DNA of 64,000 nucleotides from Candidatus Nomurabacteria bacterium (GTDB taxonomy: Bacteria > Patescibacteriota > Minisyncoccia > Phycocordibacterales > CALRBL01), in assembly GCA_963834935.1 (NCBI GenBank), contig CAWIDS010000001.1, positions 301,500 to 365,499 of the forward strand, read 5' to 3'. Below the pieces are notes generated by a model, which was not told the DNA's origin, did not search any database, and saw only the letters and a program-made list of their open reading frames with translations. Below, one piece after another: positions 17,993-47,397 of this stretch (its first letter is position 1; every line of letters starts with the position of its first letter). The translations under genes were made by a program, and so were the position numbers.

Positions 17993-18243
17993 GAGATATC
18001 TATCACTCGGCTTTCAGGAAGCTCTTTCTGTATCCTTTGTATAATAATCTCTTTTTTCATATATATGCTGTTTTTGATGATAGAGCTTACGGAAAAGATT
18101 ATCCTTCCTTTAGAAAAGGTGACATTTTCTTCAGACAAAGGAAATCCCAACTCTTCAGAAACTATTTTTTTTATTGAAAAAATAAGATCGTTAGGATTTT
18201 TTAAATCTTTGAATTTCTCAAGATAGATGGAGAGATTGAACAT
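17989..18243 (-). CDS. Hypothetical small protein downstream of dnaN (DUF721-like position)
   Basis: 84 aa ORF in conserved dnaA-dnaN downstream slot; weak. Confidence 0.35.
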   Translation of the reverse strand: MFNLSIYLEKFKDLKNPNDLIFSIKKIVSEELGFPLSEENVTFSKGRIIFSVSSIIKNSIYMKKEIIIQRIQKELPESRVIDIS

Positions 18244-18261
18244 CTTCTTATTTATTCCGAA

Positions 18262-19365: not shown

Positions 19366-19601
19366 AGACGGAGTATACTATTAATAATTTTTTTTTGCTA
19401 TATAAAAGAGATATTTAATACTTAGGAATGTGGATAGGTGGAAAATTCATTTTATGCTTAAGAAATAAAGATTAAATAAAGTTTTATTGAATTATTCCTA
19501 TGGAAAAAATGTGGAGTAAAAAGAATAACTTTCAAATAAGGTCTGATAAGTGAAAAGTTATTCACACAACTAACAATTCATCCACACCTTTTACACAGTT
19601 T
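19366..19601. other. Candidate oriC (AT-rich dnaA-dnaN spacer with DnaA-box-like 9-mers)
   Basis: TGTGGATAG (19429-19437), TTATTCACA (19558-19566), TCATCCACA (19578-19586), each 1 mismatch from TTATCCACA; flanking poly-T/AT-rich tracts. Confidence 0.55.
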
Positions 19602-20948
19602 TTACAAGAGGAGTTTCAACTCCTCTATTTCTTGAAGAAGGGTTCCGTCAACCTTCAGATCCTTTTTAATCTTGTCGCAAGAATGTATTACGGTGGTGTG
19701 ATCCCTTCCTCCTAATTTCTGTCCGATTGAAGGGTAAGATATGTTGAATATCTCTCTCAGAAGGTACATAAGCACTTGTCGTGGTTTAACCACTTCTTTT
19801 TTTCTTGATTTATCATAAATGCTTTCTTCCTCAATATTGTAAAAGCCAGAGACTATTTTAGTGACTTCTTTGATTGAGAGGTTCTTTACTGGCCTTTTAT
19901 TCACTTTTATAAGATTCTTTATCTCATTAAGCAACGGTTCTTTTCCTTTCGTCTCCATATAATGGACGATATTGTTGAAAGCCCCCTCAATTTCGCGGAT
20001 ATTACCTTCTATGTTGGCGGCAACAAACTCGATTATGGGGGTGCTAAGGGAAATGTTGTTCATCAAAGCCTTCTTTTTGACTATTTCAAGGCGTGATTCG
20101 TAATCAGGTTCAGGAATATCAACGATCATTCCAGCCACAAAGCGTGATTTAAGGCGATTTTCAAGGTTTGGTATGTAATTAGGATGAATATCCGAAGAAA
20201 AGATGATTTGTTTGTTGTTGTCATAGAGATAATTAAACAAATGGAAGAGTTCTTCTTGGGTTTTCTCCTTGCTGAAGAGGAATTGGATGTCATCCATAAT
20301 AAAGACATCGTATTTGCGGTATTTTTCCTTGAAAAAATGCATTTTATTCGCTTGGAGACAGTCGACCATCTCTTGGGAGAAGCGTTCTGAGGTAATATAG
20401 AATATTTTTTTTACCGATCCGGTGCTTTTTATGTGATTTCCGACTGCTTGCATGATGTGTGTCTTGCCCAAACCTGTCTTTCCATAGATGAAGAGAGGGT
20501 TGTAAGCTACTGGCTTGTTTATTATTGCTTGGCAAGCAGAGTAAGCGAGCTCGTTGAATGGCCCTACGACAAAAGTATCAAAAGTGTAACGTGGATTGAG
20601 ATTATCCTCCTTATTTACTGCTAATTTATCCAAAGGAAGCTCTCTTGTGTTTTTTGGTTGGGAGTTTTCTTTCTTTATTGAAGAGGCAAGCTCACTCTTT
20701 TGCTTGTCTGACACTGCATAAACAATAGAGCGCACGGATGGATCAAGATTTCGGAGAAGCTTCAGGAAAATATTGTTGTATTTATCCACAAGCCATGAAA
20801 TAACAAACGGATTAGGTACTCCAATGGTGATAACCCCCTCTTCCCTCTTTAGAATATGGGTATCTTTAAACCAAGTGTTGAATGAACCGAGAGATACAGA
20901 CAATTCTATTTCAACCAAAACGCTTTCCCATAGTTTTTTATCGTCCAT
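19602..20948 (-). CDS. dnaA: Chromosomal replication initiator protein DnaA
   Basis: 448 aa; AAA+ Walker [17 protein letters not shown]-terminal DNA-binding helix-turn-helix ([17 protein letters not shown]). Confidence 0.95.
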
Positions 20949-20966
20949 AATTCAAATAGTATATCG

Positions 20967-20975
20967 TTATCCACA
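20967..20975. promoter_or_regulatory. Perfect DnaA box TTATCCACA in dnaA/rpmH divergent promoter region
   Basis: Exact consensus 9-mer 19 nt upstream of dnaA start. Confidence 0.6.
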
Positions 20976-21026
20976 GGCTTGTCTAACTTGTGCATATCTT
21001 GCAAGTTATGTTATAGTCTTCTCACT

Positions 21027-21161
21027 ATGTCACGAACATACCAACCAAAGAAAAGAAAGCGAGCAAAGACCCATGGATTTCTTGTAAGGCAGAAGACAAA
21101 GACCGGAAAAAAGGTCGTAGCTCGACGCCGACAAAAAGGAAGAAAAAAGCTAGCTGTTTAG
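21027..21161 (+). CDS. rpmH: 50S ribosomal protein L34
   Basis: [30 protein letters not shown]... 44 aa from ATG at 21027. Confidence 0.9.
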
Positions 21162-21166
21162 ACTTT

Positions 21167-21478
21167 GTGTTCTCAAAAAACCAACGAATTAAAAAAGCCG
21201 ACTTCGAAGATATCTTAAAAAAGGGGAAAAATTCAAACAAACCCCTATTTTCGTTGGTTTTTTTGCCTGGAACAGGTTTGAGGTGTGCAGTTGTAGCCTC
21301 GAAAAAGGTCTCAAAAAAGGCTGTCATCAGGAATAGGAATAAGCGCCGGGTAAGGGATCTTCTTAAAAAAATCCTAAAAGAAAAAAATAAAGGCTCATAT
21401 ATTATCTTTATCAAGAAAGACCTTGCTGAAATTCCCCACCTTTCAATATCCAAAGAGTTGGAATCCATGCTAGACTAA
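21167..21478 (+). CDS. rnpA: RNase P protein component
   Basis: 103 aa, GTG start, basic protein directly after rpmH; conserved RNR-motif region (NRNKRRVRD). Confidence 0.8.
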   Translation: MFSKNQRIKKADFEDILKKGKNSNKPLFSLVFLPGTGLRCAVVASKKVSKKAVIRNRNKRRVRDLLKKILKEKNKGSYIIFIKKDLAEIPHLSISKELESMLD

Positions 21479-21488
21479 TCAACATCTT

Positions 21489-22217
21489 ATGTTCATAGCC
21501 ACCTTTTTCGGACTTTTTTTCTACAATCCACTTTACAACGGCCTTGTCTTGCTTCTTTCTTACCTCCCTTCTCCTGACATAGGCTGGGCGGTCATTATTT
21601 TTACCGCTTTCATCAAGCTTTTGCTTTTCCCTCTCTCAAGGCAGGCTGTCCGTACTCAGATGAAGCTTAAGGAGGTAGCTCCCGAGCTTGAAAGGATAAA
21701 AGAGCAATATAAGGATGAAAAAGAGAAGCAAGCCAAGGAAATGATGCTTGTCTACCAGAAAAATGACATAAATCCTTTCTCAGGATTCCTTCTCGCCTTG
21801 ATCCAGATCCCAATCATCCTCGCCCTCTACTTCATCTTCCTTAAGGGGGGACTTCCGGTCATAAATGCCAAGATACTCTACTCTTTCGTGAAGATTCCGG
21901 CCAACATAAACACTCATTTCCTTAATCTGATAGACGTAAGCAAGCCTCAGATAGTGCTTGGCATCCTCGCCGGCATCAGCCAATATGTACAGGTTCAGTT
22001 CTCAGTTCCGCCCATCAAGAAAGTCGATAACCCAGGCTTCAAGGACGACCTCGCACGCAGTATGAACATGCAGATGCGCTATATACTCCCCTTCTTCGTC
22101 TTCCTTATCTCATTCAAGGTCTCAGGAGCGGTCGCTCTCTACTGGATAACGGGAAATCTCTTCACTATCGGACAGGAATTATATATGCGAAAGCATCTAA
22201 AGAATAAGAAAGCTTAG
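21489..22217 (+). CDS. yidC: Membrane protein insertase YidC/Oxa1 (short form)
   Basis: 242 aa, 5 TM helices, conserved rpmH-rnpA-yidC order. Confidence 0.85.
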   Translation: MFIATFFGLFFYNPLYNGLVLLLSYLPSPDIGWAVIIFTAFIKLLLFPLSRQAVRTQMKLKEVAPELERIKEQYKDEKEKQAKEMMLVYQKNDINPFSGFLLALIQIPIILALYFIFLKGGLPVINAKILYSFVKIPANINTHFLNLIDVSKPQIVLGILAGISQYVQVQFSVPPIKKVDNPGFKDDLARSMNMQMRYILPFFVFLISFKVSGAVALYWITGNLFTIGQELYMRKHLKNKKA

Positions 22218-23410
22218 ATCTTGAGGTTCCAAAGGGTAAGGTCTCTCTTATTCATGAAAAGAAGGTAATCTTCGTCGGGAGAAAGTTTTGGATTGATCAC
22301 GTCGATTTGGACACCTCCCTCATTCTGGAGATTTGCTACATTGCTGGTGTTTCCAGTTAATGCGTCAATTGTCTCTATATTGTCGTTGAAGAAGACTTTT
22401 CCTTGATACCATACATCTGGATACACTCCGTTGGGAATGCTTGAGGTGACGGCACAGTAAGCCAAAGAAGGCATCTTTACAGACCATACGCATTTATCAG
22501 GTATCAAAGGACTTGAAAGAGGGTTTTCTACTCCTGTCCTTATATTCAATATGCCGGAAACCAAAATGTCATTCTTATTTTGCGAATAGATGGCGTATTT
22601 TGCATCAGGCGAGACCGATACCACAAGGCCGTTGCGGGCACTCAGAAGCTCTGTCATCGCTTTTGTCTTTATGTTATAGAGGTAGCTCAGGTTCTGAGTC
22701 TTTGCCGAAGGCGCAGTTGTCAGAAGAGCGATGCCGCTGCTTACCATCTGGACGTTCCATTTTTCAACAGCGCTTGAAAAGACAATGCTTTTCTTTGCTG
22801 GGAAGGAATAAAGTGATCCTTGCGCCCCATTCGGAGTGCTTTCGATGCCGAAATAGCTGTCTTTGGCTGGAGAAAGAGATAGTGAGCTTATTTCCGATGG
22901 AAGGAATATTCCAGTCGTCGAAGAATTGCTTATTGAGCCGATAAAAGTCTCTATTTTTTCAGTTGCATCGTCAAGCGTCCTGAAAATGACGTTATTGCCG
23001 CCCTTTCCTATGTATGCCTCATACACTTTGGGAATGGTAGTATTCGAAATCTTGCTTATAGCAAGGTTGTCCGGAGCAGTCTGGAAGATGTTTCCTGTAG
23101 CCCGATCGACGTATTCGATGCCAGTGAGTTTTGTGGTGAGCGTAATGAAGTCACCCCCCGCAACCGGCGTGGTAGTGATCTGTCGGAGTCTGGGAATAGA
23201 TGTTGAAGAGGTGCTTGTCGAGATTATTGCCAAAGTCGAAGAAGAAAGTATCGTGCCGGTAGTGTCTACAAGCTGTCCTGTGGCAGTTACTGAAGAAGGG
23301 GTGGGTTTTGATACTTTAGTATTAGTGAGATAGAAATATCCTCCGACAAGCGCCCCCAATACCAGTATGAATGCGATAAGGATTACGGCTGTAAGATACT
23401 TTCGTGACAT
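22214..23410 (-). CDS. Membrane-anchored Thr/Ser-rich protein with probable beta-propeller domain (hypothetical)
   Basis: 398 aa; N-terminal TM helix, long beta-rich ectodomain; first... last gene of the T4SS-like locus. Confidence 0.55.
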   Translation of the reverse strand: MSRKYLTAVILIAFILVLGALVGGYFYLTNTKVSKPTPSSVTATGQLVDTTGTILSSSTLAIISTSTSSTSIPRLRQITTTPVAGGDFITLTTKLTGIEYVDRATGNIFQTAPDNLAISKISNTTIPKVYEAYIGKGGNNVIFRTLDDATEKIETFIGSISNSSTTGIFLPSEISSLSLSPAKDSYFGIESTPNGAQGSLYSFPAKKSIVFSSAVEKWNVQMVSSGIALLTTAPSAKTQNLSYLYNIKTKAMTELLSARNGLVVSVSPDAKYAIYSQNKNDILVSGILNIRTGVENPLSSPLIPDKCVWSVKMPSLAYCAVTSSIPNGVYPDVWYQGKVFFNDNIETIDALTGNTSNVANLQNEGGVQIDVINPKLSPDEDYLLFMNKRDLTLWNLKI

Positions 23411-23442
23411 GTATATATTATATACTAAATAAAATTTTATTT

Positions 23443-24399
23443 TTATTCTCCTCTATAAAGTGGACCCCAATAATGATTCTTTTGTGTCCCAGTAATACTA
23501 CCTGTATCACTGATTTGATTTTTTAATATTATGATAGCTGCTTGAGTGTTATATTTAGGATCATCTATTATTTGTTGTGGAGTAACTCCGTATTTTGCTG
23601 CAAGGCCTTGCACTGCGTTATCTCCAACACTAAGAGAGTATAAACCTTCTGAAGAAAAGTTTGAACTGCCATCTTGAGAATGTGCCGTAGTATTATCACT
23701 TGGATTAAAGCCAGATTCGCTATTTGCAATATTTGCGAGCAAGCTCACATATCCCTGCGCTGTTACTGTCCCGTCTGGAAAATATTTTGCTGCATCTGAA
23801 GGGCTAAGGTTTAAAATTCCCGAATCTTGTATTTGTTGGAGCGTATAAGCATTCATATCTGTAGGAAGCCCATTTGCACCGTCTGTAGGAAAATCTGTGC
23901 CTGATTGGGTGCCGTCTGCTATGTCTCCGCTTCCGTCCCCAGGAGAAGTTCCATCCGAACCACTCGCCCCGACATTATAACCAACATTTGTTACTTGGAT
24001 CGGAATAGGTGTTACTAATACAGACGTTATATTTAAATTGCTTCCTATAAGCCTCGGATCGACGAATTTCAAGATGACATAAGAGCCTAATGCGACCAAT
24101 AAGCCGAGAAGGGCAGCATTGATACGGTCCTGGCCTTCGGTTTTTTTCCCCATCGCATCGCTCGACATGTATTCGATACCCCCAACGACGATCATGAGGA
24201 CCGCAAGCGCACTGCAAAGGGCGATGCCAAGGGCGTACATTGAATTCAGATATTGGCTGAGGGAATTGCTACTGCTTATATCTACAGGATTAGTAACATA
24301 ATTAGAAATAGGCGCTAAGGGCACGTAGCTTTGAGCAAGAGCGATGAAAGGAGAAATCATTATTAAAGCGAGGATTGCGAATAAAAGAGTTTTTTTCAT
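23443..24399 (-). CDS. TrbC/VirB2-like pilin fused to C-terminal SLT/VirB1-like lytic transglycosylase-like domain
   Basis: Signal peptide, then two hydrophobic helices separated by charged loop (YALGIALCSALAVLMIVVGG / INAALLGLLVALGSYVILKFV) as in conjugative pilins; C-terminal ESGFNPSD...EGLYSLSVGDNAVQGLAAKYG resembles SLT ES-x-FNP...GLMQ core. Confidence 0.45.
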   Translation of the reverse strand: MKKTLLFAILALIMISPFIALAQSYVPLAPISNYVTNPVDISSSNSLSQYLNSMYALGIALCSALAVLMIVVGGIEYMSSDAMGKKTEGQDRINAALLGLLVALGSYVILKFVDPRLIGSNLNITSVLVTPIPIQVTNVGYNVGASGSDGTSPGDGSGDIADGTQSGTDFPTDGANGLPTDMNAYTLQQIQDSGILNLSPSDAAKYFPDGTVTAQGYVSLLANIANSESGFNPSDNTTAHSQDGSSNFSSEGLYSLSVGDNAVQGLAAKYGVTPQQIIDDPKYNTQAAIIILKNQISDTGSITGTQKNHYWGPLYRGE

Positions 24400-24400
24400 A

Positions 24401-25429
24401 TTAGAAATTTATTTTTACCGATCCGGTGGCGCCTTGGAGGATTCTCGCTGAATTCTCGAGAATTGCCTCGATCACCGAGCTTCCCTTCTGGTTGGTTGAA
24501 TTCCTGAAAGTGGCATAGTTCTGATTTTCAGCCTGGGCAATAGGATTTCCGTTGATAGACCATGAATATTTAAGTGTCGGATCGCTTTTTAATACCGCGC
24601 TCGCATAGTATGGATAGGCGCCGACAGTGACTTCGGAATCAGTCATTTGGAAATCATTTGCTCCAAGCTCAGTATTGAAAAGGGTTCCGTACAAGGGATT
24701 TTTCTCATAGAACATCATCTCAGGCTCTTCCGGGGAAACTAACATCGAGCCTGTGCCGGTAATGCTTCCGTCCAAAGAAGATACGTCTACTTGCACCAAG
24801 ACGTCTTTTCCGAGGATGTCTTCAGTATAAGAAAGGGTGTTTTTACCGTAGCCAGAAAGGCTTCCCTGCACCGTGCCATCGATTGTCCATTTATAGATAA
24901 GGTTTTTAGGATTTACGCTTGCTCCGCTTGGCGTGAAGAGGTTAGGCATGGCTATGAAAGTGATATCCCCTTCCTTGGTAAAGATAGCCTTTCCTTTATA
25001 AAAAGGAGGAGTATAGCCTGAAGCTTCATAGATGATTGGAACTTCCTGCGAAGAAACGCTTGCCGTCTTTATGATGTCCGGGCTGCCGTCTGAAGGAGTG
25101 ATGTCGGCTGAGACGTTCTGAACGACTCCTTTATCCCCAGCTGTGACTGAAAAAGTGGTAAGGCCGGTATCTTGCTGGACAACTTTTCCGTTCACTGACC
25201 AAGAAATAGAGTCGGCGTTCAGGTCAGTTCCATAAGCAGCCAAGGTGAAGGTGACCGTATCGCCAGGATTAGGATTGGTCGGCGTCACGTCCAATGTCAC
25301 CTGCTGCTGGATGTCGCCTGATTGGATCGGATCATAACTTTGTGCTGAGCTTTTTTGTGCAAAGTAAGAGAAACATACGAAAGTAAAAACAATTAACAAA
25401 AAAACAAAGAGAATTGAACTTTTTTTCAT
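24401..25429 (-). CDS. Secreted beta-rich protein (hypothetical, Ig-like repeats)
   Basis: 342 aa, signal peptide, repetitive Thr/Ser/Gly-rich beta-sandwich-like segments. Confidence 0.55.
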   Translation of the reverse strand: MKKSSILFVFLLIVFTFVCFSYFAQKSSAQSYDPIQSGDIQQQVTLDVTPTNPNPGDTVTFTLAAYGTDLNADSISWSVNGKVVQQDTGLTTFSVTAGDKGVVQNVSADITPSDGSPDIIKTASVSSQEVPIIYEASGYTPPFYKGKAIFTKEGDITFIAMPNLFTPSGASVNPKNLIYKWTIDGTVQGSLSGYGKNTLSYTEDILGKDVLVQVDVSSLDGSITGTGSMLVSPEEPEMMFYEKNPLYGTLFNTELGANDFQMTDSEVTVGAYPYYASAVLKSDPTLKYSWSINGNPIAQAENQNYATFRNSTNQKGSSVIEAILENSARILQGATGSVKINF

Positions 25430-25469
25430 CGCCTTAATTATATACCTATTTTTTTACAAAATCTAACCC

Positions 25470-26324
25470 TCACAAAACATTTGCAAACTTATAACCTACA
25501 ATACCATTAAAAGGTCTTATACCCGCATTATGTTTATTCCAAGCAGCCATAAGCACCGGATCACTTTTATCATCGTTACTAATACTTCCATTTCTCATTA
25601 TATCTGCTGCTTTTGATAACTTTATATTATCCTCTCTTGTTCTATTCGATTTTTTATTTAATTGGTCTAAGGCATCATTGCTAGATTGCTGATATTCTCG
25701 CATTCTTTTATTTTCTGCTTCTGCTGCAAGGAATTCTCTTTCTGTGGTATTCCGGTCATTACGAATATTTAGTGTTTTAATCTCTTCTTTTTCCTCCTCA
25801 ACCTCTGATTGTTGGAGCTGTTTATCTTGTACTTGTTTAGACTGTTCCTGTTGCTGCCTATCTCGAACCATCTGTAACCGCGTCATTTTCTGCTGCTGAT
25901 CCTGCTGGACTTGTATCTGCTGCGCTTTTATCTGGACTTCATTCTGCTTTTCCCATTTCTTGTTGTTCTGAACGGCAAGCCACCAGTTGTAACAATGATC
26001 AAGGCTCCAGAATGGCAGTGCATCGAGGTCGGGGATTTCTTCCCCAAGAAAAGTAGCGACCATTCCTAGGACTTTCATGGTCATATCATCAGAACCACTT
26101 CCAACCTCTCCTCGTATCCATAGATAAAAAGAGTAGGATATCTCTACTCCAATATCTATAAAGCGGTTTATGATTACTCCCGATTCAAAAAAAAGGTCCA
26201 AAAGAAACTGAACAAGGTCAATTATTAGGAATGCTCCGAGAACCAAACCCCACTCCGTGTTGCTTATTTTGCTTTTGGTGATCTGGGCCATAGGTTTACA
26301 GCTTGCGAGCCATATCCTCTTCAA
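25470..26324 (-). CDS. Membrane protein with Gln-rich coiled-coil C-terminal half (hypothetical; start uncertain)
   Basis: 284 aa ORF, 2 TM helices then QQIQVQQDQQQ... coiled coil; immediately downstream of VirB4-like gene. Confidence 0.45.
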   Translation of the reverse strand: MKRIWLASCKPMAQITKSKISNTEWGLVLGAFLIIDLVQFLLDLFFESGVIINRFIDIGVEISYSFYLWIRGEVGSGSDDMTMKVLGMVATFLGEEIPDLDALPFWSLDHCYNWWLAVQNNKKWEKQNEVQIKAQQIQVQQDQQQKMTRLQMVRDRQQQEQSKQVQDKQLQQSEVEEEKEEIKTLNIRNDRNTTEREFLAAEAENKRMREYQQSSNDALDQLNKKSNRTREDNIKLSKAADIMRNGSISNDDKSDPVLMAAWNKHNAGIRPFNGIVGYKFANVL

Positions 26325-28117
26325 GCTCTGCTCGCGCTTTCTTCATTGCGAGGACTTGGGCAGGATCCGAGGTGATGATCTGGTCTTCTGTATACGAGGC
26401 GATAATCTTGATGGCAACATGCTTGAGGCCGGCGAAGAAGATTCCCTCCCCTACATCCGATTCAAGAAGAAGATATTTTTCCTCATCGGTTAGGTTGAAG
26501 GTTTTTTGCACTGCATCGATTGAAGAAGGTGATTGCTTGAGAAGAAGCTGGATCGAGGAGTTGGTGATGATCGGCAATCCGTAAGGTGATTTCAGGAAGT
26601 CCTCGACGTCCTGAGTAATGGTAGCAAGGCCGAGATAGTATTTTCGTCCTCGTTTTGCCAAGCCGAGAAGGAATGAGGCAGTGTCTTCTGATTTCATCAT
26701 CCACCATGCCTCGTCGATGACCAGAAGCCTTTTCTTGAGCTCTTTTCGGATGGCATTCCAGATGAAGTGGGTGACGATATACATTGCTACAGGCTTGAGT
26801 TCGTCTTCCATGTCTCGCACTGAGAAGACGACAAATTTCTTGTTAATGTCGACATTTGTCGGCTGATTGATGAAGCCTGCCCATGTTCCGCGAGTATATT
26901 TTGAGAGTTTTGTACCAGACATTCCGCTCCTTCCATTCCCGCAAGCACCATTTCGAAGTCGGACATCAAAGGCGGCTCGATATCAGTGAAATTCGAGTCG
27001 GGAGTAATATCTTTGAGTGCGTAAGTTTCGCTAATAGCTTTGTCGATGATGGCATCTTCTTCAGGGCTTAGTCCACCGAGCATGATGCGGAAAAGGCCGA
27101 CGAGGTTGACGATATTCGAGCGGAGGACGTCAGCATCTGATTCATCTGGCCGAGGATGAGGAAGGTCGAACGGATTGATGTGGTGCTCGGAGGTAGAGGA
27201 GATGTTGAAATAGCGGCCACCGGTAGCTTCAGCCATGTATTCATATTCCTTTTCAGGGTCGATGACGATGACATCGGCATCGAACATGAGTGTTCGGAGG
27301 ATTTCGAGCTTGGTAGCGTATGATTTTCCGGATCCGGCTTTGGCGAAAGTCACGGAATTGTAGTTTTCAAGCGAGAAGCGGTCGAAAAGGACAAGCGTTG
27401 AATTGTGGCGGTTGATGCCGTAAAGAATTCCTTTGTCAGAGGTAAGGTCGAAAGAAATGAATGGAAAGAGGCTTGAGAGAGCGGTGAAGAATTGAGCTTC
27501 GAGTGGATTTCCAGAAGGTCGTCTGCGATAGGTAGCGTGCTCTTGAAAGCCTTGTTCCTGCTGGAAAAGCGCGGGCTTGAGATAGACAAGCTTTGCTTCG
27601 AGGATTGATTTCATTTCCGATTCGATTTTATCGAGTTCAGCGCTCGAATCTCCATAAAGTGAGATATAAAGACCGACATCGAAGATCCTTTCTTGTGCCT
27701 GCTGCAGATCGTCGCGAAGCTTCTCAAGGTCTTGATAGGCAGTATCAAGCATCGGATCGCGGACCAAGCCCTTCTCTTCTCTGATGTGGATCTGGCTTTG
27801 CACTTCAGCGACTTTCTTTTGAAATTGGCGAAGCATTTTCGTGTTTCAATGGGATGGATGAAAATGGAAATATCAAAAACTTTGTCGAGGTTGATGATCG
27901 GCGAGAACCAGTTGTCGCTCAGATAGCGCGGATAAGAAATCACAAAGAAGCTCCTCACAATCTTGTTGCCGAGGTTTATTTCTTTCGAGCTAATTTTCAG
28001 CGCAGAAGGCGAGATGATATCTTTCAGGTCAAGCTCTTGGGACTGATAAAGCTCGCTTGGCAAGCTTGTCAGGTTCTCATTCTTTTGTTTTTTTGTAAAA
28101 ATATCGAGTAGTCCCAT
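26296..28117 (-). pseudogene. virB4: VirB4/TraC/CagE-family type IV secretion ATPase, interrupted by two frameshifts
   Basis: Three overlapping frames (27611..28117, 26787..27836, 26296..26922) that read through as one protein: Walker A AKAGSGKSY, Walker B LLVIDEAWWMM, GLATITQ; shift 1 at the T4 run 27837-27840, shift 2 near 26920-26945. Confidence 0.75.
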
Positions 28118-28118
28118 G

Positions 28119-28619
28119 TTATTTAGTATGAATCGGCTTCTCTATCTCTCCAGGGTTGAATGACTTGTAGAAAAGCTCGATCAGCTCCTCATTTTCAAGC
28201 TCAACCATCCTGATGCCGCAGCGCGTAAGTCCTTCTTCGACCACCGCCACCCTTTGCTCGAGCTGGCCGATGTTTTCTTTGAAAGTGACATTCTTGTCTT
28301 CGGCATTTCCTTTCTTCGGCCAAAAACTGGGGGCGTATAAGGAATCACTACAAAGAAATTCTTGGTCATGATATTGCTGCTTTCGGTAAGCGTCCTGACG
28401 AATTCGACATATTGCCTGACTTGGAGCTTCATCAGGTCGGTTGTCTGTTCCGTTTCCCTTTTTTCGAGTATGTCGAGATAAGGCTTGATGTTGGAGGCGG
28501 CGCGATTGGACGCATATTTGTACTGAAAAGTTCAGGGAATTGAGGAAATTTTGGAACTGGCCGATGATTGCCGCCTGCTCGTCAGATGATTTCAAAGCGA
28601 AGTTGAGTGATGAAGCCAT
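28119..28619 (-). pseudogene. Hypothetical ~170-aa protein upstream of VirB4, two frameshifts at homopolymer runs
   Basis: Protein-like translation switches frame twice (…NSLNF|QYKYASNRAASNIKPYLDILEK…VVIPYTPPVF|WPKKGNAEDKNV…ELENEELIELFYKSFNPG); junctions in TTTT and CCCCCAGTTTTT runs. Confidence 0.45.
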
Positions 28620-28746
28620 AACGATTGCCCTAAAGCGATCCGTATTCTAAGCACAACGAAATTATCTTTTATTTCCTCAATAGGGATGAATTCCTGAGTG
28701 GCTTTGGTTTGTGAGGCGAGTGACATATCGTGCTAAGTATACCCTA

Positions 28747-29196
28747 TTAGACTTTAATATTTAAGAGATCATTAAGGCTTTTTTCTTCTCCATCGTATTT
28801 TTTCGAAGCAAGGCTGCCTTTTATATCTTTTAAACTGCTTCTTCTTGTTGTAGGAATGGAGATGATAGCTGTCGGATCATATGACATGTCGATTTCCTTC
28901 GTGGGTACCGGCTTATTTTCTTTTTTCCAGATGTAAAGCTTGTTTTTGGTGAAAAAAAGCACGGCAGCTTGGACTTCGTCAAGGAATGGTCTGTTGTTAG
29001 GCTTGTAAAAAGTCAGGGCGACAAAGAAAGCAAGTACAGGCAAGGCAAGAGGGATGCCGATGAATGCGGGCGTCACGAAATGGTAGATGGTATAGGAAAT
29101 GCCGAGCCCTCCCGCAAGATAGATGAATTCCTTGAACGAAAGAGAAAAGAAAATCTTATCCTCGATCTCGATGAATTGTGGAACCTGGAACTTCAT
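28747..29196 (-). CDS. PrgI/VirB3-like small two-TM membrane protein
   Basis: 149 aa; MKFQVPQFIEIEDKIFFSLSFKEFIYLAGG... layout matches PrgI/VirB3-type proteins that precede VirB4 in Gram-positive-type T4SS. Confidence 0.45.
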   Translation of the reverse strand: MKFQVPQFIEIEDKIFFSLSFKEFIYLAGGLGISYTIYHFVTPAFIGIPLALPVLAFFVALTFYKPNNRPFLDEVQAAVLFFTKNKLYIWKKENKPVPTKEIDMSYDPTAIISIPTTRRSSLKDIKGSLASKKYDGEEKSLNDLLNIKV

Positions 29197-29212
29197 TTGG
29201 ACTAGTATAGCA

Positions 29213-30964
29213 TTATTCCGAAACTACCCGAAGGACTTCTTCGATAGTAGTCACACCCTGCACCGCCTTGAATACCCCGTCTTCTATCATGGTAAGCATT
29301 CCTTCTTTCTTTGCCTGCGCTTCTATTTCATCTGACGTCGTTCCTTTCATGACTAATGCCTTGATAGGTGCGCTAACCTTGAGAATTTCATGTATGCCGA
29401 TCCTTCCCGCATAGCCATCTTCCGATTCAGCGCTTTTAATAGGCTTGTAGAACGGGATTGTCTGCCACTCCGCTTTTTCATCGACTATCTTTCTTTCTTC
29501 AGGAACTCCAGAACCCGGGCAATGTCGACTTTCTTGGAAAGCATATCAAGCTCATCTTTGGTGAGAAGGTATTTTTCCTTGGTGACAGCCAGTTTCCTGA
29601 TAAGGCGCTGGCCTATGATACATTCAAGGTCGAGACAAGAGGAATGGCTCTATGTGCATGTCGATGAAGCGTGGAATGGCGCCGGCGGCTGAATTGGTGT
29701 GAAGGGTCGAGAGTACAAGGTGTCCAGTGAGCGAGGCGTTGATGGCGAGGGATGCCGTTTCATTGTCGCGGATTTCCCCCACCATGATGATATCCGGGTC
29801 CTGCCTGACAAGGGAGCGGAGTCCCGAGGCGAAAGTAAAACCGATTTCTGGCTTTACTTGGGTTTGATTGATCCTCTTCATCTGGTATTCGACAGGATCC
29901 TCAATCGTGGAGATATTCACATCGGCTGTATTCAGGATATCTAGAACGGTATAGAGGGTCGTCGTCTTTCCTGACCCTGTCGGACCAGTAGTAAGGATCA
30001 TTCCAGTCGAGAGTTTTGTCGCTTCATATATCCTTTCTAATCCTTCTCCATGGAAGCCGAGATGCTCGAGGGTAAAGCCGGAAACATTTTCCCTAAGCAA
30101 ACGCATTACTGTCTTTTCTCCGTAGTACACAGGCAGGATAGACACTCGAAAAGAGACATTTTCCCCATTCATTTCGATCTTGAAACGGCCGTCTTGGGGA
30201 AGCCTTTTTTCGTCGAGCTTGAGGCTCGAAAGGACTTTGATGCGGGCTGTGATGGAATCGCCTGCATTTTTTGGCAAGATCATGGCGTCGTGAAGTATTC
30301 CATCTATGCGGTAGCGTACTACCACTTCATTTTCTTGAGGTTCGATATGAATATCCGAAGCGTTCTGGATGATGGCATGTTTCAGGAGCGTATCTACGAC
30401 TCGGACTACCGGCAAGTCCTCGGCCATCTTCTGAAGGTCTTTGATGTTGAGTTTGCCGTCCTTGTTCTGATCCCCGACTGATTTTATGGAGACTGATTCC
30501 TTCTGGATGATATCACCGAAGTCAGCCTTGAGGCTTTTCTGGTATTGGAGGATTGCCGACTTCATCGAATTCACGTCAGTAAGGCGTGGAAGAATCTTCA
30601 AGCCCACTTTCTTCTTGACGAAATCGAGTGCGCTCAAGTCATCGGTGTCGAGCATTGCCACCTCAAGCGTCTTATCATCTTTCTTGAAGCCGATGATATT
30701 GTGCTTGCGGGCAATCGGCTCGGGAATGAGAGAGAGAACACTGAAATCTATCTTTTGATCTTTGAGATCCACGAATGGGATCCCAAGTATGTAGGCTTGA
30801 ATTTTTCGGAGATCTTCCTCGGTAATCAGGCTTTTTTGCAGCAGAATATCACCCATGTCTACCCCCTTTTTCTCTGATTCTTCGCGTGCAGTAGCAAGTT
30901 CTTTTTCGGAAACCAATCCCGAATCCATTATGAACTTTTCAAATTGAGCTTTGTTTATGAACAC
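29213..30964 (-). pseudogene. Second PilB/GspE-family secretion ATPase, C-terminal region disrupted by >=3 frameshifts
   Basis: 446-aa frame with Walker A GPTGSGKTTT, Asp/His boxes stops at LLSRP*; the C-terminus continues in two other frames (…IIGQRLIRKLAVTKEKY… then …YKPIKSAESEDGYAGRIGIHEILKVS…GVTTIEEVLRVVSE*) homologous to the PilB C-terminus. Confidence 0.75.
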
Positions 30965-30989
30965 GCTGACATTGTAACATATTCGTCAA

Positions 30990-32075
30990 CTAGTTGATTG
31001 GATTGATTGGAATTTCAAGTTGAATATTTGAGGTACTTCCTACACTGTCTGTAACCGTTACTGTTGCATTATATATAGCGAAAGGATCTGCCATTGAGGG
31101 TGTTCCTGATATCAATCCGCTGTTTGAAAGGCTTATGCTGTTATTTCCTAAAAATTGACCAGCAGTTACAACCCATGTATAGGGAGGAACGCCGCCTGTT
31201 GCGCTTAGTTGAAAACTATATGATTGATTAACCTTACCCGATGGTAACTCTCCAGCACTTCCTCCAAGCATAGTCATGCCCGCAGTACTAATAGCAAGAG
31301 GTCCTGTATATGATCCTGAACCTTTTTGGCAATAAAGGAGAGATATGTAGGGGTTCATAATATCCATTGCTTGTTGGGGTCCTACTGCATTATCGCTTGT
31401 ATCGAATATGACATCACGGGTAAGCGCGCTGTATGCGTCCTGGTTTGCCTGATCATCTATAAGAACATATGGAGTTCCTTTTTGGGAACTGTCATCTCCG
31501 CGCTCAAACCCATTTATCTGAAGTTTGAATGGAGCTATCTCTGCAGGAACCTGCAGGTGTGTTTCTGCACCGCCTGTGTTTCCAAGAGCCCTTTGGCTCA
31601 ATGAGACTCCATTCTCGTCTGTATTTCCACTTCCCGTTCCGATGATCGTCCGTCCTGAAGCAGGCGCAAATTGGCTCCAGCCGGTAGGGCATGAAGTAAG
31701 ATTGAAAGCCATGACTGCTCCGGTAGGGACTGAAGCAGAAGCCTGCCATGTTCCATTTCCTTGGCTGTCTGAAGTAAGAACATTTCCTGAAGCAGCATTA
31801 AGAGGAATCTGAATACCATTTCCGAAATACCCACTACCAGCAGTAATAAAATTATTTGATGTTAATGTTCCTGCAATATTTAATAGGCTTCCATCTATCA
31901 CAGAGCCATTTTTTGCTTGAGGAATAGCACCAGTGTTGAGAGGAGCATCAACGTTATTGGTCGGAGGGTTGACTGGTGCTGCTGTCCATGTTCCTGCTTG
32001 GACACCGATAACCCCCAATACAAGAATAGAGACAATAACAAGGTTTTTTATGATCTGAATTATTTTTTGTTGCAT
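30990..32075 (-). CDS. Secreted protein with phage tail-collar domain and Ig-like domain
   Basis: 361 aa; signal/TM anchor; GAVMAFNLTSCPTGWSQFAPASGRTIIGTGSG...LGNTGGAETH fits tail-collar (tail fiber) domain consensus; PSGKVNQSYSFQLSATGGVPPYTWVV fits putative Ig domain. Confidence 0.55.
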   Translation of the reverse strand: MQQKIIQIIKNLVIVSILVLGVIGVQAGTWTAAPVNPPTNNVDAPLNTGAIPQAKNGSVIDGSLLNIAGTLTSNNFITAGSGYFGNGIQIPLNAASGNVLTSDSQGNGTWQASASVPTGAVMAFNLTSCPTGWSQFAPASGRTIIGTGSGNTDENGVSLSQRALGNTGGAETHLQVPAEIAPFKLQINGFERGDDSSQKGTPYVLIDDQANQDAYSALTRDVIFDTSDNAVGPQQAMDIMNPYISLLYCQKGSGSYTGPLAISTAGMTMLGGSAGELPSGKVNQSYSFQLSATGGVPPYTWVVTAGQFLGNNSISLSNSGLISGTPSMADPFAIYNATVTVTDSVGSTSNIQLEIPINPIN

Positions 32076-32079
32076 ATAA

Positions 32080-32430
32080 TTATTGATTATTTAATAAGCT
32101 TATAATATCCGCTTTCTGTCTCTCCGATAACGTCTCATTTTTTTGAGCTGTTAATTGTTTTATGATCTGATTTTTTTTAATAGTGGTAAGACTGCTGCTT
32201 GCTGAACCCTGGCTATTCAATTCTGCAATTATTTGGCTTTTTTGTTCTTCTGTGAGGATATTCTTATTGGTTTTGGTGGGGGCATCTTTTATTCTATGAT
32301 CATTTATGCTTGTAACACCTAAAATGATAAAGGAAGTTAATAATGATAATATCGAAAGCCATGCAAGGCGTTTCATTTCATGCTTACCTTTTAGCTTACC
32401 AGTCGCGTTTTGGTTTAATTTGTAAGACAT
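32080..32430 (-). CDS. Small secreted/anchored protein with internal Q-rich repeats (hypothetical; alt start MKRLAWL at 32376)
   Basis: 116 aa; repeated QKSQIIAELNSQ / KKNQIIKQLTAQ / RQKADIISLLNNQ units. Confidence 0.4.
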   Translation of the reverse strand: MSYKLNQNATGKLKGKHEMKRLAWLSILSLLTSFIILGVTSINDHRIKDAPTKTNKNILTEEQKSQIIAELNSQGSASSSLTTIKKNQIIKQLTAQKNETLSERQKADIISLLNNQ

Positions 32431-32437
32431 TTTTTAA

Positions 32438-33712
32438 TTAAAATTCTTTTGCCTGGCCCGAAACATTGCATGTCGCAGTGTTTGAAACTGCGTTTTGTCC
32501 TGCCGCATTCGTAACGCTCAGTTTATAATGCGTAGTATACATGATATTATTCCTTGTTGTTGATCCTGAATTCAATGGACCATATTCGTTCTGCAATATG
32601 TTTCCATCAGACACCCCGCCATCCTTTATGAGGGTGCTCGTTCCTGTTGTCGGGTCAAAATTGGTTATAGACGACCATGATAGCGTGCATTGTCCACCAG
32701 AGGCGATGGTCGCCGGACTTGCAACAAGAGGTCCGATTACCGGACCTGTTCCAGTTCCCGGAGGAGGACATGAGGCTGGAACCGTTATTGATTCAGTATT
32801 TGAATAAGGAGAACATTCTGCAACAACACAAGCGGCGACTGAATAGGTATAAGTAGAGCCTGGCTGGCCCAAGGAATCTGTGAAAGAAGTGACTCCTATG
32901 TTGCTGAAGTTGCTGATTGAACTGTCAGGATTCTCTTTTTGTATATTATAGCTTGTTGCCCCGGAGATGTTTGTCCAGGAGAGGCTGATGCTGCAATTAT
33001 TGCCGCCGCTAAGCGATGGTGGAGAAAGCGTAGGTGCACCAAGACCGTTCGGACAGACGCCATTCGCTGGGGCGCTTCCGTCTGGACAAGGAGCTACACA
33101 GCTGCCGGTCGTCGTATCATTCACTTGTCCTGCCGGGCAAGTATTATTGGTAAGAGAGGCTCCAGACATGTCTATCCACCCTATGTTTGTAGCGCCCCAC
33201 GCATAGCCAATCAAGGGAGTAGATGTAACTCCAGGTGTACTCAAGCTTACTCCGTAACCTGTTCCTCCGAGACTGATCCATCCGTCCCATCCATCTGTCC
33301 TGTCAGCGCTATTGCAATCCTTGTTTACTGTCCCTGAGCATGCTCGGGCCCAACCGGTAAAGGTGTTTCCGCTTAAGATGGCATTTACGCCTAAGGTACC
33401 TCCTCCAGTTGGGAATCCCGAAAGTCCTCCGAATTTTATCCAGCCGATATTAGGCGACCATCCATAACCGCTGACTAATCCTGTCGAACTGACTGTTACT
33501 TGGCTCATATCTATCCAGCCAATCGTGCTTGACCAGGCATATCCGGAAAAGGAACGAGTCGTGTCTGCTTGGGAGATCTTTACTTTATTTGTTTGGCTGA
33601 AAAGATTCAGGCTGAGGAGAGTTATGACTATTACTAAAAGAAAAATCCAAAAAGAGACACTTTTTTTCATATATACATAATTATATGTCTTGTATACGAA
33701 TGTGTACAGCAA
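32438..33712 (-). CDS. Secreted repeat protein (GYxWS..IGWI repeats + FN3-like domain; hypothetical adhesin)
   Basis: 424 aa (probable start MKKSV at 33670); three GY(A/G)W(S/G)xxIGWI(D/K) repeats, Cys-rich segment, FN3-like SISLSWTNISGATSYNIQKE...STYTYSVAAC. Confidence 0.55.
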   Translation of the reverse strand: MLYTFVYKTYNYVYMKKSVSFWIFLLVIVITLLSLNLFSQTNKVKISQADTTRSFSGYAWSSTIGWIDMSQVTVSSTGLVSGYGWSPNIGWIKFGGLSGFPTGGGTLGVNAILSGNTFTGWARACSGTVNKDCNSADRTDGWDGWISLGGTGYGVSLSTPGVTSTPLIGYAWGATNIGWIDMSGASLTNNTCPAGQVNDTTTGSCVAPCPDGSAPANGVCPNGLGAPTLSPPSLSGGNNCSISLSWTNISGATSYNIQKENPDSSISNFSNIGVTSFTDSLGQPGSTYTYSVAACVVAECSPYSNTESITVPASCPPPGTGTGPVIGPLVASPATIASGGQCTLSWSSITNFDPTTGTSTLIKDGGVSDGNILQNEYGPLNSGSTTRNNIMYTTHYKLSVTNAAGQNAVSNTATCNVSGQAKEF

Positions 33713-33787
33713 AGGCTTCCATCAATGTGGATAACTTTAAGCCAACTTGATTTTTTTGCTCTTTTAAGATACATTAGTGTCGTTCAC

Positions 33788-33814
33788 GTTCGCCGAAAGC
33801 GAACTTGTTTTTTT
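33788..33814 (+). terminator. Hairpin + U-run in nusA 5' leader (candidate attenuator/intrinsic terminator)
   Basis: GTTCGC-CGAAA-GCGAAC stem-loop followed by TTGTTTTTTT, ~25 nt upstream of nusA ATG; no plus-strand gene upstream to terminate. Confidence 0.4.
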
Positions 33815-33837
33815 AATAGAAACTAAGAATTTAAACA

Positions 33838-34998
33838 ATGTTTGATTTAAAAGTAATTCACTCCGTCTTGGACCAGATGGAACAAGAGCGAGGAATTCCA
33901 AAAGAAAAGATAATAGAAGCTATCGAATTGGCTTTGGCTACGGCATACAAGAAGGAATTTGGCAAAAGAGGCCAATATATGAGGGCTCGTTTTGATATTG
34001 ACTCCGGAAAAGTGGAGTTTGAGCAGGTCAAGGTCGTTGTAGACGAGTCAAGCGTCGTTTTTGGCGAAGAAGGCGATGAAATCAAGGATAAAGAGGAAGA
34101 AATCACAGAAGACGGCGTCCTAAAGCTCCGTTTTAACCCAGAGCATCATATTTTGCTTGCTGATGCCCGAAAAATCAAAAAAGACGTCGTTTTAGGCGAT
34201 GAAATGGTATTTCCCCTTGAAAATAAGGCTGATTTTGGCAGAATAGCCGCTCAAACCGCTAAGCAAGTGATCATTCAGAAGATTCGTGAAGCTGAAAAAG
34301 TCTCAGTTTTAGGCGAATTTGGCCAGAGAGAAGGCGAAATTGTCACTGGAAGCGTCCAACGTGTGGAAAGAGGCAATATTTTCATGGATATGGGGCGCGC
34401 TTCAGGAATTCTTCCTTTTGAGGAACAGATTCCTGGCGAGCATTATCGCCAAGGCGAGAAGGTCAGAATGTACCTTTCCCGGGTAGAAGAGACTCCGCGA
34501 GGTATATTCCTGCGTCTTTCAAGGGCTCATCCAAAGTTTTTGACCAAGCTTTTCGAGGCGGAAGTGCCGGAAATCACCTCAGGTGCCGTTGAAGTCAAAG
34601 CGGTAGCCCGCGAAGCAGGATCACGTTCCAAGATAGCTGTTTTTTCCAATGATCCTCATGTTGATCCTGTCGGATCGATGGTCGGGCAGCGCGGGGTTCG
34701 CGTCTCTACCGTCATGAGCGAGCTCGGAGGAGAAAAGATAGATATTATTGAGTGGTCTCCTGAGATTGAAAAATTTATCGAAGACTCTATCTCCCCTGCT
34801 AAAGTGATATCTGTCAAGGTAAATAAAGAAGAAGCTTCGGCTGTTGTAGAGGTCTCGGAAGACCAGCAATCGCTCGCTATCGGAAAAGGAGGACAAAATG
34901 TCCGACTTGCTGCCAAGCTTACAGGATTCAGGATCGATATTCGCTCTGGCAAAGGAGAAGTTGTTGCAGATGCCGCCTCTGAAGAAATTAATAACTAA
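33838..34998 (+). CDS. nusA: Transcription termination/antitermination factor NusA
   Basis: 386 aa; N-terminal RNAP-binding domain, S1 and two KH domains (GxxG motifs). Confidence 0.9.
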   Translation: MFDLKVIHSVLDQMEQERGIPKEKIIEAIELALATAYKKEFGKRGQYMRARFDIDSGKVEFEQVKVVVDESSVVFGEEGDEIKDKEEEITEDGVLKLRFNPEHHILLADARKIKKDVVLGDEMVFPLENKADFGRIAAQTAKQVIIQKIREAEKVSVLGEFGQREGEIVTGSVQRVERGNIFMDMGRASGILPFEEQIPGEHYRQGEKVRMYLSRVEETPRGIFLRLSRAHPKFLTKLFEAEVPEITSGAVEVKAVAREAGSRSKIAVFSNDPHVDPVGSMVGQRGVRVSTVMSELGGEKIDIIEWSPEIEKFIEDSISPAKVISVKVNKEEASAVVEVSEDQQSLAIGKGGQNVRLAAKLTGFRIDIRSGKGEVVADAASEEINN

Positions 34999-35015
34999 TA
35001 CATCATATATATAGT

Positions 35016-35549
35016 ATGTCTATAAATCTATGGAAAGATATTGATCCCGGAACGAAGGATAAGATGACAGTGATCATTGAGATAAACAAAGGCTCGAAGA
35101 ATAAATATGAAATCGACAAAAAGCTCGGTCTAATTGCTTTAGATCGGGTGATGCACACTGCCCAAGATTATCCTTTCGATTATGGTTTCGTACCTCAGAC
35201 ATTGTGGGAAGACGGAGATCCTCTCGATGTTGTTGTTCTTACCACCTATCCTCTTTTTCCTGGGGTATTGGTGACTGTCCGTCCTGTCGCGATCGTTAAT
35301 ATGATCGATTCAGGCGAAAGCGATGCGAAGATAATCGCCGTACCTTGCGAAGATCCGCGATTCGATGATGTACAAGATATCGGAAGCGTGAACAAGCACA
35401 CTCTCAAGGAGATCAAGCACTTCTTCCTCACTTACAAGAAGCTCCAGAACAAGGAAGTCACCATCAGCGGAATCGAAGGGAAAGAAAAAGCCGTCGAAGC
35501 TTTTGAGAAATCTCTCAAGCTTTACAACGAGAAGTTTGCAAGCAAATAG
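35016..35549 (+). CDS. ppa: Inorganic pyrophosphatase (family I)
   Basis: 177 aa; conserved DGDPLDVVVL and Asp-rich active-site pattern. Confidence 0.9.
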   Translation: MSINLWKDIDPGTKDKMTVIIEINKGSKNKYEIDKKLGLIALDRVMHTAQDYPFDYGFVPQTLWEDGDPLDVVVLTTYPLFPGVLVTVRPVAIVNMIDSGESDAKIIAVPCEDPRFDDVQDIGSVNKHTLKEIKHFFLTYKKLQNKEVTISGIEGKEKAVEAFEKSLKLYNEKFASK

Positions 35550-35558
35550 CAAAAAATT

Positions 35559-36632: not shown

Positions 36633-36633
36633 T

Positions 36634-37350: not shown

Positions 37351-37429
37351 TTACCTACCTTACCGTGAAACTTGCTCTTATTCAAATTTTAGCTATCCTT
37401 TAGATACCTAACAAATAATTTCAAAAAAC

Positions 37430-47393: not shown

Positions 47394-47397
47394 ATAT

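Follow-up and report, generated by a model that had tools for sequence, protein, structure and literature searches.

The DNA analyzed here is a 64,000-nucleotide stretch of a Candidatus Nomurabacteria genome (contig CAWIDS010000001.1 of assembly GCA_963834935.1, positions 301,500 to 365,499; hereafter the window), and our subject is the block of genes between yidC and nusA. We conclude, with considerable confidence, that this locus is a chromosomal, non-conjugative type IV secretion system (T4SS) of the kind carried by Patescibacteria, related to MPF-FATA systems and of the Paceibacteria arrangement by origin; that the cluster was probably split by an inversion; that the PilB-type ATPase gene next to it appears to be a bystander; and that the small insertions and deletions (indels) in its ATPase genes are likelier to be artifact than real. 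The system is of an already described kind, in a new instance with a clade-specific split arrangement. An earlier note, made from the sequence with no database searches, had proposed a hybrid of a T4SS and a type IV pilus (T4P) system and had treated the pairing of their ATPases as unusual biology. Its identification of a non-conjugative T4SS-like locus of the VirB4/VirB3/VirB2 type was borne out; the hybrid machine was not.

Core components and relationship to known systems

Eleven co-directional genes on the minus strand fill the interval from yidC (21489–22217, + strand) to nusA (33838–34998, +), as had been noted earlier. Read from the yidC end, they encode a 398-amino-acid (aa) protein, a 318-aa pilin/SLT protein, a 342-aa Ig-like protein, a small membrane protein, VirB4, a TrsD-like protein, PrgI, a PilB/GspE-family ATPase, and then three proteins that are secreted or anchored (361, 116, and 424 aa). 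The part from 22214 to 29196 corresponds to the right half of a Patescibacteria-type T4SS. Because rnpA (21167–21478), dnaA (19602–20948), and dnaN (18262–19365) lie just past yidC, the locus is beside the replication origin. The neighborhood of yidC, rnpA, and dnaA is shared with ~100 other Paceibacteria loci.

Profile searches supported the assignment of the core genes. The Pfam scans covered ~60 open reading frames (ORFs) across the window. The motifs reported earlier for the VirB4 region (AKAGSGKSY, LLVIDEAWWMM, and GLATITQ) and for PilB (GPTGSGKTTT) were all present. The PrgI/VirB3-like protein (28747–29196, −), which has 149 aa and two transmembrane segments and is intact, matched PF12666 with 39.5 bits against a cut-off of 27. 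The VirB4 ATPase-domain gene (26296–28117, −), whose product is ~605 aa long in relatives, carries four frameshifts (ORFs 27611–28117, 26787–27836, and 26296–26922). This region matched PF19044, and the frame-corrected protein matched NF045971, the "VirB4-like conjugal transfer ATPase, CD1110 family," with 364 bits against a cut-off of 325, over profile positions 177–733 of 752. The TrsD-like gene next to it (28119–28726, −), a separate VirB4 N-terminal domain of ~200 aa with three frameshifts, matched positions 1–171 of the same profile, and it scored 34 bits with the TrsD model NF041427, below the cut-off. Since the two proteins cover successive parts of NF045971, we conclude that VirB4 is naturally encoded by two genes here.

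Comparison with relatives agreed with these assignments. The synteny set consisted of 83 loci, 80 of them from one-genome-per-species GTDB contigs. Intact TrsD-like orthologs of 201–215 aa were found directly upstream of VirB4 in 80 loci, and the 215-aa ortholog in a Joint Genome Institute (JGI) metagenome contig (L001) has a precomputed match to PF26593 (TraC-like). After correction, the TrsD-like protein was identical to the intact 201-aa ortholog of locus L167 at 151 of 200 residues. The corrected VirB4 was identical to that of L001 at 518 of 602 residues (86%), and the frameshift-aware alignment contained no in-frame stop. More than 8000 VirB4 homologs were retrieved with a query of 512 aa taken from the C-terminal portion of the reconstructed protein. 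The best 120 were 602–703 aa long and 84–91% identical to the query over its length, and several of them are named by their sources as Parcubacteria, Paceibacterota, or Patescibacteria. Conservation of VirB4 is very strong. Judged from these identities, it probably belongs to the monoderm/Patescibacteria type.

The VirB2-like pilin required evidence from orthologs. The 318-aa protein (23443–24399, −) has a VirB2-like T4SS pilin domain at residues ~46–112, followed by a C-terminal SLT-like (VirB1-like) lytic transglycosylase region, and both Pfam matches were below their cut-offs (T4SS_pilin, 18.6 bits vs 26.6; SLT, 17.5 vs 21.3). The L001 ortholog scored 40 bits for SLT and 25.6 for T4SS_pilin, and 62 of the 75 proteins in this position matched T4SS_pilin at E ≤ 0.001, with two more matching TrbC. 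The pilin assignment therefore stands by positional orthology, although the window protein itself falls short of the threshold. The C-terminal domains of the 75 proteins varied, with VanY in five and Peptidase_M15_4, YkuD, and SLT in one each. Having found the pilin domain with such different enzyme domains, we concluded that the pilin-like module carries a cell-wall enzyme in at least some lineages. L001 has two pilin-position genes in tandem (13318–15173) with near-identical pilin domains.

Neither a relaxase nor a coupling protein was found in the Pfam scans of the window ORFs or in the precomputed annotations of two contigs from an independent assembly of the same organism (L164 and L166, described below). 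A conjugative/integrative mobile element (ICE) with a Gram-positive-type T4SS might nevertheless be considered, because the best match of VirB4 is to a family model from ICEs and conjugative transposons (CD1110), and an IS1595 transposase gene and a tyrosine recombinase gene lie 16–20 kb away. However, the position of the locus beside yidC, rnpA, and dnaA is kept in ~60 species-level genomes, neither a relaxase nor a VirD4/TcpA-type coupling protein is among the scanned ORFs, the GC content of the locus is unremarkable, and two papers come to a like conclusion for the whole phylum (PMC12102498, PMC10633639). We regard this explanation as effectively refuted. The IS1595-family transposase gene (45699–46571, −) adjoins a 1.3-kb segment (44401–45699) in which no ORF exceeds 80 aa and neither a tRNA nor an Rfam match was found. 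The tyrosine recombinase (47398–48423, −) is complete, with Phage_integrase and SAM-like N-terminal domains, and its gene overlaps an Exo_endo_phos nuclease gene (46626–47453) by 56 bases; both have full-length matches.

The same two papers describe essentially this gene set as a standard locus, a finding that the earlier note had named among those that would refute its reading. Quinonero-Coronel et al. (2025, Microb Genom, PMC12102498) report that Patescibacteria have a VirB4 clade related to MPF-FATA, with abundant TrsD homologs next to VirB4, a PrgI-type VirB3, VirB6 homologs, VirB2-like pilins, and, in Paceibacteria, VirB1 homologs near virB4; almost no relaxases were found, and the genes were often close to dnaA, dnaN, rnpA, and ksgA. 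In Wang et al. (2023, Cell, PMC10633639), transposon sequencing of the saccharibacterium Southlakia epibionticum showed that its T4SS cluster, including pilins, is essential for epibiotic growth (see also PMC11665869 and PMC12857230) and that it has no recognizable coupling protein or relaxase. Reviews describe the role of the T4SS as unknown, with effector delivery or nutrient/DNA uptake as possibilities (PMC11665869, PMC12857230).

The window system resembles these T4SSs in its separate TrsD-like and VirB4 proteins, PrgI/VirB3, candidate VirB6-like protein, VirB2-like pilin, and VirB1/SLT-like hydrolase near virB4, in the absence of a relaxase or coupling protein nearby, and in its location beside dnaA, dnaN, rnpA, and ksgA. 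It differs from them in that its cluster lies in two opposite halves ~30 kb apart, PilB and three lineage-specific genes sit at the break, and the TrsD-like, VirB4, and PilB genes are frameshifted in this assembly. The available part of PMC12102498 makes no mention of PilB, frameshifts, inversions, or a split cluster. Taken together, the available parts of PMC12102498 and PMC10633639 mention no PilB adjacency, split arrangement, or frameshifts, and they do not name the beta-propeller and Ig-like accessory genes as components.

The system also resembles the MPF-FATA conjugative T4SSs of monoderms (TrsD/TrsE of pGO1, PrgI/PrgJ of pCF10, and CD1110 of Clostridioides difficile CTn2) in its CD1110-family VirB4, separate TrsD-type N-domain, PrgI-type VirB3, cell-wall hydrolase, and lack of an outer-membrane core. 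In contrast to those systems, it has no relaxase, coupling protein, or PrgB-type adhesin, and it occupies a chromosomal core locus rather than a mobile element; unlike Gram-positive systems, which lack one, it has a VirB2-like pilin.

Gene order, the split cluster, and the PilB neighbor

L001 (693,708 bp) illustrates the arrangement in a close relative. From the nusA end it contains nusA, four unrelated genes, PilB, PrgI, the TraC-like gene (215 aa), VirB4 (605 aa), and a 157-aa gene, followed by a 332-aa gene, the pilin-SLT gene, a second pilin gene, a 396-aa gene, yidC, rnpA, dnaA, and dnaN. The order that recurred over the 83 loci was PrgI, TrsD-like, VirB4, 342-aa, pilin, 398-aa, yidC, rnpA, dnaA, and dnaN. 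Matches to VirB4 were present in all 83 loci, to the TrsD-like protein in 80, the 342-aa protein in 79, PrgI in 78, the pilin/SLT protein in 66, the 398-aa protein in 65, YidC in 59, DnaA in 53, and PilB in 2; the dnaN/dnaA/rnpA/yidC group adjoined the cluster in 52–59 of the loci. Because the genes from PrgI to the 398-aa gene recur, and PilB and the three genes upstream of it do so rarely if at all, the conserved block comprises PrgI through the 398-aa gene and excludes PilB and the upstream trio.

In most loci, PrgI is preceded by four conserved genes, encoding proteins of ~300 aa (48 loci), ~550 aa (52 loci), ~730 aa (a polytopic membrane protein, 61 of 78 loci), and ~230 aa (60 loci). The polytopic family sits one to two genes upstream of PrgI in the 61 loci. 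Farther upstream, a ksgA-like gene was found in 31 and a UvrD-like gene in 12 of the 78 loci. Homologs of the first three of these genes, which make up the left half of the cluster, are present in the window at 61099–64000 on the plus strand, 30 kb from the right half. The first (61099–62058) encodes a membrane-anchored protein of 319 aa that has TSP3 repeats of the bacterial, calcium-binding type (TSP3_bac, 33.5 bits), and the second (62043–63119) encodes a 358-aa protein with no named family. The third (63120–64000) encodes a polytopic membrane protein that is ~730 aa long in relatives; because the window ends within this gene, only its N-terminal 293 aa are included. Support came from tblastn: the first two matched families u4 and u3 (the 48- and 52-locus families upstream of PrgI elsewhere) with E down to 3e-45 and 4e-60, and the third matched family u2 with E down to 3e-40. 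Upstream of them on the same strand are a UvrD-type helicase gene (57203–59116; UvrD, E = 5e-85) and ksgA/rsmA (59140–59925; RrnaAD, E = 2.4e-50).

The polytopic protein is a candidate VirB6/TrbL-like channel subunit. TrbL/VirB6 (PF04610) was matched by 3 of 37 members of the family (best E = 6e-5) and was the only Pfam family matched by more than one member. The window fragment, cut by the window end, matched no family itself, and a PDB profile search with the family returned no T4SS protein, only unrelated proteins that matched the C-terminal tail of the profile. The earlier statement that VirB6 was absent is thus correct for the minus-strand block between yidC and nusA, but a VirB6-like candidate is present on the plus strand in the left half.

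The simplest explanation of this arrangement would be a single inversion that split the T4SS cluster. Its breakpoints would lie between PrgI and the ~230-aa gene and beyond PilB. With the left half at 61.1–64 kb on the plus strand and the right half at 22.2–29.2 kb on the minus strand, the break would have set PilB, a neighbor of nusA, beside PrgI. We infer the event rather than observe it because the far breakpoint falls beyond the window end. Two points weigh against our reading here: this second breakpoint is unseen, and the VirB6 assignment rests on position and on weak matches by three of the 37 family members.

Between ksgA and the left half there are two minus-strand genes, at 59926–60333 (135 aa, no match) and 60330–61043 (237 aa, a weak IPT/TIG match). 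Just upstream of the UvrD and ksgA genes is the largest ORF of the window, 1294 aa (53288–57172, +), which had no Pfam match at E ≤ 1e-4.

The gene next to PrgI (29216–30964, −; ~583 aa in relatives) belongs to the PilB/GspE family. Its truncated 446-aa ORF matched the T2SSE domain PF00437 (E = 5.7e-100) and the MshEN N-domain, and its best scores were with PilB and GspE models, although the score with the PilB equivalog TIGR02538 (509 bits) was below the 675-bit cut-off. In having an MshEN N-domain and a T2SSE core it is like the ATPases of type IVa pili and type II secretion (PilB, GspE, and MshE). Unlike the genes of those systems, it is frameshifted and is unaccompanied by PilC, PilD, PilM/N/O, or prepilin genes: no T2SSF (PilC), peptidase A24 (PilD), PilM/N/O, or prepilin with an N-methylation motif was found in the scanned window ORFs. 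The only T4P-type genes in the window are two scattered PilB-family ATPase genes. The second (11480–13192, +) is intact, encodes 570 aa, and is 37% identical to the T4SS-adjacent PilB; it stands alone between a 419-aa ORF (10076–11335, no Pfam match, in a stretch of 54% GC) and ruvC/yebC/ruvB, with no other pilus genes nearby.

The position of PilB would be consistent with a true hybrid, in which the T4SS had taken over a PilB-class ATPase, perhaps to act as a second motor like VirB11 or to assemble the VirB2-like pilin. In the window, as in L001, L002, L084, L085, L086, and L088, the gene is co-directional with PrgI and lies 20–150 bases upstream. PilB and VirB11 also share a secretion-ATPase superfamily, the window PilB gave weak matches to VirB11/TrbB models (46–55 bits, far below the cut-offs), and MPF-FATA-type systems are not known to encode a VirB11. 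Against recruitment, the adjacency is confined to one small clade: where 3 kb or more of sequence precedes PrgI (102 loci), it occurs in 5, and the full set of 163 loci has 7 cases, all among the closest PrgI relatives; in one of the seven (L087) PilB has the opposite orientation. In the 102 informative loci, PrgI is preceded by the VirB6-like block in 94, by PilB in 5, and by neither in 3. The protein is a full-length PilB with MshEN that scores best as PilB or GspE, and the canonical left half survives 30 kb away, as a simple inversion predicts. In L084–L087, PilB is immediately adjacent to nusA, and this looks to be its native location. We consider recruitment very improbable.

Because 30 kb separate the VirB6-like block from PrgI and the two are on different strands, the juxtaposition of PilB and PrgI is best read as a by-product of the inversion, and because PilB adjoins the T4SS only in one clade, we leave it out of the machine. 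In our reading, neither PilB nor the trio of secreted-protein genes beyond it would be a T4SS component; they would be neighbors.

Frameshifts in the ATPase genes

Ten indels of 1–2 bases between 26908 and 29640 break the TrsD-like, VirB4, and PilB genes, as determined from frameshift-aware protein alignments and from DNA alignments to several orthologs. The TrsD-like gene has indels at 28644 (+2), 28493 (+1), and ~28314. VirB4 has four, at ~27840 (−1), 27548 (+1, in a T run), 27480 (+2, CT within CTCTCT), and 26908 (−1, in an A run), and PilB has single-base deletions at ~29640, ~29620, and ~29492. The VirB4 coding sequence is distributed among four ORFs that occupy three frames, with its Walker A and Walker B motifs in different frames, and the PilB ORF stops ~140 codons early, its C-terminus continuing in other frames. 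With seven frameshifts in the TrsD-like and VirB4 genes, intact, translatable ATPase genes are not present as assembled; PrgI, in the middle of the block, is intact. The families of both ATPases had been recognized correctly in the earlier note, but the frameshifts had been missed.

No comparable damage was found in the ~60 other window ORFs, in which Pfam-matched domains were complete or nearly so. Further broken genes were considered at the overlapping ORF pairs 9564/10076, 40552/41406, and 46626/47398 and were rejected, the domain matches being complete or absent with no sign of a frameshift. Programmed frameshifting or alternative decoding was also rejected: the ten sites are of mixed sign, and the other genes read normally with translation table 11.

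We think it probable that the frameshifts are consensus or assembly errors in a block of 3–4 kb, for example carried over from error-prone or mixed-strain data. The corrected VirB4 shows no decay. It deviates at 3 of 290 near-invariant columns, always conservatively (the 120 homologs deviate at 0.9 such columns on average and at 10 at most), it has 6 private residues against a mean of 5, and its distance to the consensus is normal; the 86% identity to L001 is an ordinary inter-species value for this gene. Among 143 other loci with VirB4 matches, the gene was complete in 134, and in all 134 it was in a single frame.

An independent assembly of the same organism was available as three Logan contigs from run ERR10755936. 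L166 was 100% identical to the window over 30639–40104. L164 (ERR10755936_98354) differed at a single base over 12214–23742 (11.5 kb): the G at 23045 is missing from it (L164 position 698), which splits the 398-aa beta-propeller gene of the Logan copy into ORFs of 133 and 270 aa. L165 was identical over 23736–26367, then differed at eight sites within 26368–26593, and ended at 26713. These eight substitutions are confined to a 225-base stretch at virB4's 3′ end, and the adjoining 2.6 kb are identical. No Logan contig or gene call covered 26714–30638, the interval that holds all ten indels. The block is therefore another haplotype or sequence of lower quality than its flanks, with 26368–26593 marking its edge. 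Because the flanks are identical, neutral decay in place cannot yield a 2.3%-divergent block with ten indels.

Other sources were searched for the same block. When PrgI and three fragments (208, 349, and 166 aa) were looked up as exact proteins, no second same-strain copy appeared; the sole exact PrgI in the protein collection (P0241) is on the presumed source, a 432,723-bp NCBI/ENA contig. A metagenome scan with PrgI found no relative above 57% identity, and a GTDB scan with VirB4 found none above 84%. The best non-self PrgI (P0242, 61%) came from other samples. Confusion of reads between species was rejected as the cause of the errors, since nucleotide identity to other species is only 72–78%.

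Several observations speak against error and for a strain or haplotype that recently lost its T4SS motor (the TrsD-like protein and VirB4) together with the adjacent PilB, either as a decaying T4SS or as a defective variant among intact relatives. The indels were judged from assemblies and may be real. All ten are in three adjacent genes, and some are in slippage-type contexts (the added CT within CTCTCT, and the changes in T and A runs). The sole difference between the window and the Logan contigs in ~21 kb of flanks is another frameshift, the one in the T4SS-linked 398-aa gene of the Logan copy, which hints at relaxed selection on the locus in the population. In addition, the eight edge mismatches (three synonymous and five non-synonymous) look natural: every residue has been seen in orthologs, so they are plausible alleles and the block may be a real, different haplotype.

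However, other evidence counts against a real loss. The corrected frames are free of stop codons and of decay at the protein level, and at ordinary ratios of substitutions to indels, dozens of substitutions and some stops should accompany ten indels. The identity of the flanks to the other assembly excludes neutral decay in place, the neighboring T4SS genes in the window are intact, VirB4 is intact in every one of the 134 other loci with a complete copy, and the T4SS is essential in the one Patescibacterium tested. We consider real inactivation possible but rather unlikely. Slightly more doubtful still is its fuller version, a natural Paceibacteria haplotype that lost the motor ATPases, with a sister haplotype in ERR10755936 that carries an independent beta-propeller frameshift and, as a minor variant, a PilB–PrgI junction that is a functional recruitment. 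If true, it would describe either a lineage that is losing the machine by which it interacts with its host or a defective variant sustained by intact neighbors.

Accessory proteins, proposed function, and significance

The 398-aa protein (22214–23410, −) is encoded at the same position in 65 of the 83 loci and has no Pfam or NCBIfam family. An AlphaFold2 model from a 58-sequence alignment (mean predicted local distance difference test score [pLDDT], 90.3) has a transmembrane helix at residues 3–30 and an all-beta domain from residue 75, giving an N-terminal membrane anchor, a disordered linker, and a beta-propeller-type domain. The best Foldseek matches were propellers of the WD40/RACK1 type (E ~1e-11); because these were ~10% identical with TM-scores of ~0.5–0.7, the fold is generic.

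The 342-aa secreted protein (24401–25429, −) is encoded by a conserved accessory gene that immediately follows VirB4 and the small membrane-protein gene in 79 of the 83 loci. Its N-terminal domain is weakly Ig-like (Ig_3, 25.3 bits, below the cut-off), and a single-sequence AlphaFold2 model (pLDDT, 44) was unusable. The small membrane protein (25470–26291, −; 273 aa as called in L165, or 284 aa from the first TTG) has a Q/E-rich tail and matched no family. Its membrane part is 40% identical to the product of the positional 157-aa gene of L001, and the gene was found by tblastn in 12 of the 83 loci.

The three lineage-specific genes between PilB and nusA (30990–33712, −) encode secreted or anchored proteins of 361, 98/116, and 410/424 aa. 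Counterparts of the 361- and 116-aa proteins were found in none of the 83 loci, and of the 424-aa protein in one, with a match at 14% coverage. This slot is empty in L084–L087 and holds four unrelated genes in L001. Because its content differs between loci, we regard the three genes as lineage-specific cargo outside the conserved system. The domains first proposed for the secreted proteins fared unevenly. A tail-collar domain in the 361-aa protein was rejected, with no Pfam match even at E ≤ 1, and the "GW repeats" were IGWI-type motifs visible only by eye. Matches to Ig-like and FN3 domains do exist, but they are below the cut-offs (17 bits for fn3 in the genes at 30990–33712).

From homology and the Saccharibacteria papers, the following mechanism can be proposed. 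VirB4, encoded as two genes (the TrsD-like N-domain and the 605-aa ATPase), would be tethered to the membrane by PrgI/VirB3 and would energize a channel built around the VirB6-like polytopic protein. The VirB2-like pilin may form a surface conduit or pilus, with its lytic transglycosylase-like tail opening the peptidoglycan. The membrane-anchored beta-propeller, Ig-like, and TSP3-repeat proteins would be extracellular accessory or host-contact parts. Since neither a relaxase nor a coupling protein was found in the window, the probable role of the system is an exchange of proteins, or of other material, with a host cell and not the conjugation of DNA. Both the accessory roles and the substrate are putative, which counts against our reading.

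The locus bears on comparative work in several ways. There is a likely sequence-quality problem in a public genome of 433 kb, at genes that are used as T4SS markers in comparative studies. The apparent T4SS/T4P hybrid demonstrates that such a pairing can be an illusion of synteny produced by rearrangement, and a clade with a two-part T4SS cluster is now documented.

The T4SS of the Patescibacteria is near-universal in a huge, mostly uncultured radiation, it is essential for epibiotic growth in one species, and its substrate is unknown. The window adds little that is new on this system itself. It does show a pilin domain that is fused to different cell-wall enzymes by lineage, and the conserved unnamed accessory genes, encoding the beta-propeller, Ig-like, and TSP3-repeat proteins, are reasonable targets for studies of host contact. 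If the frameshifts are real, the locus would represent a rare natural loss of the Patescibacteria T4SS.

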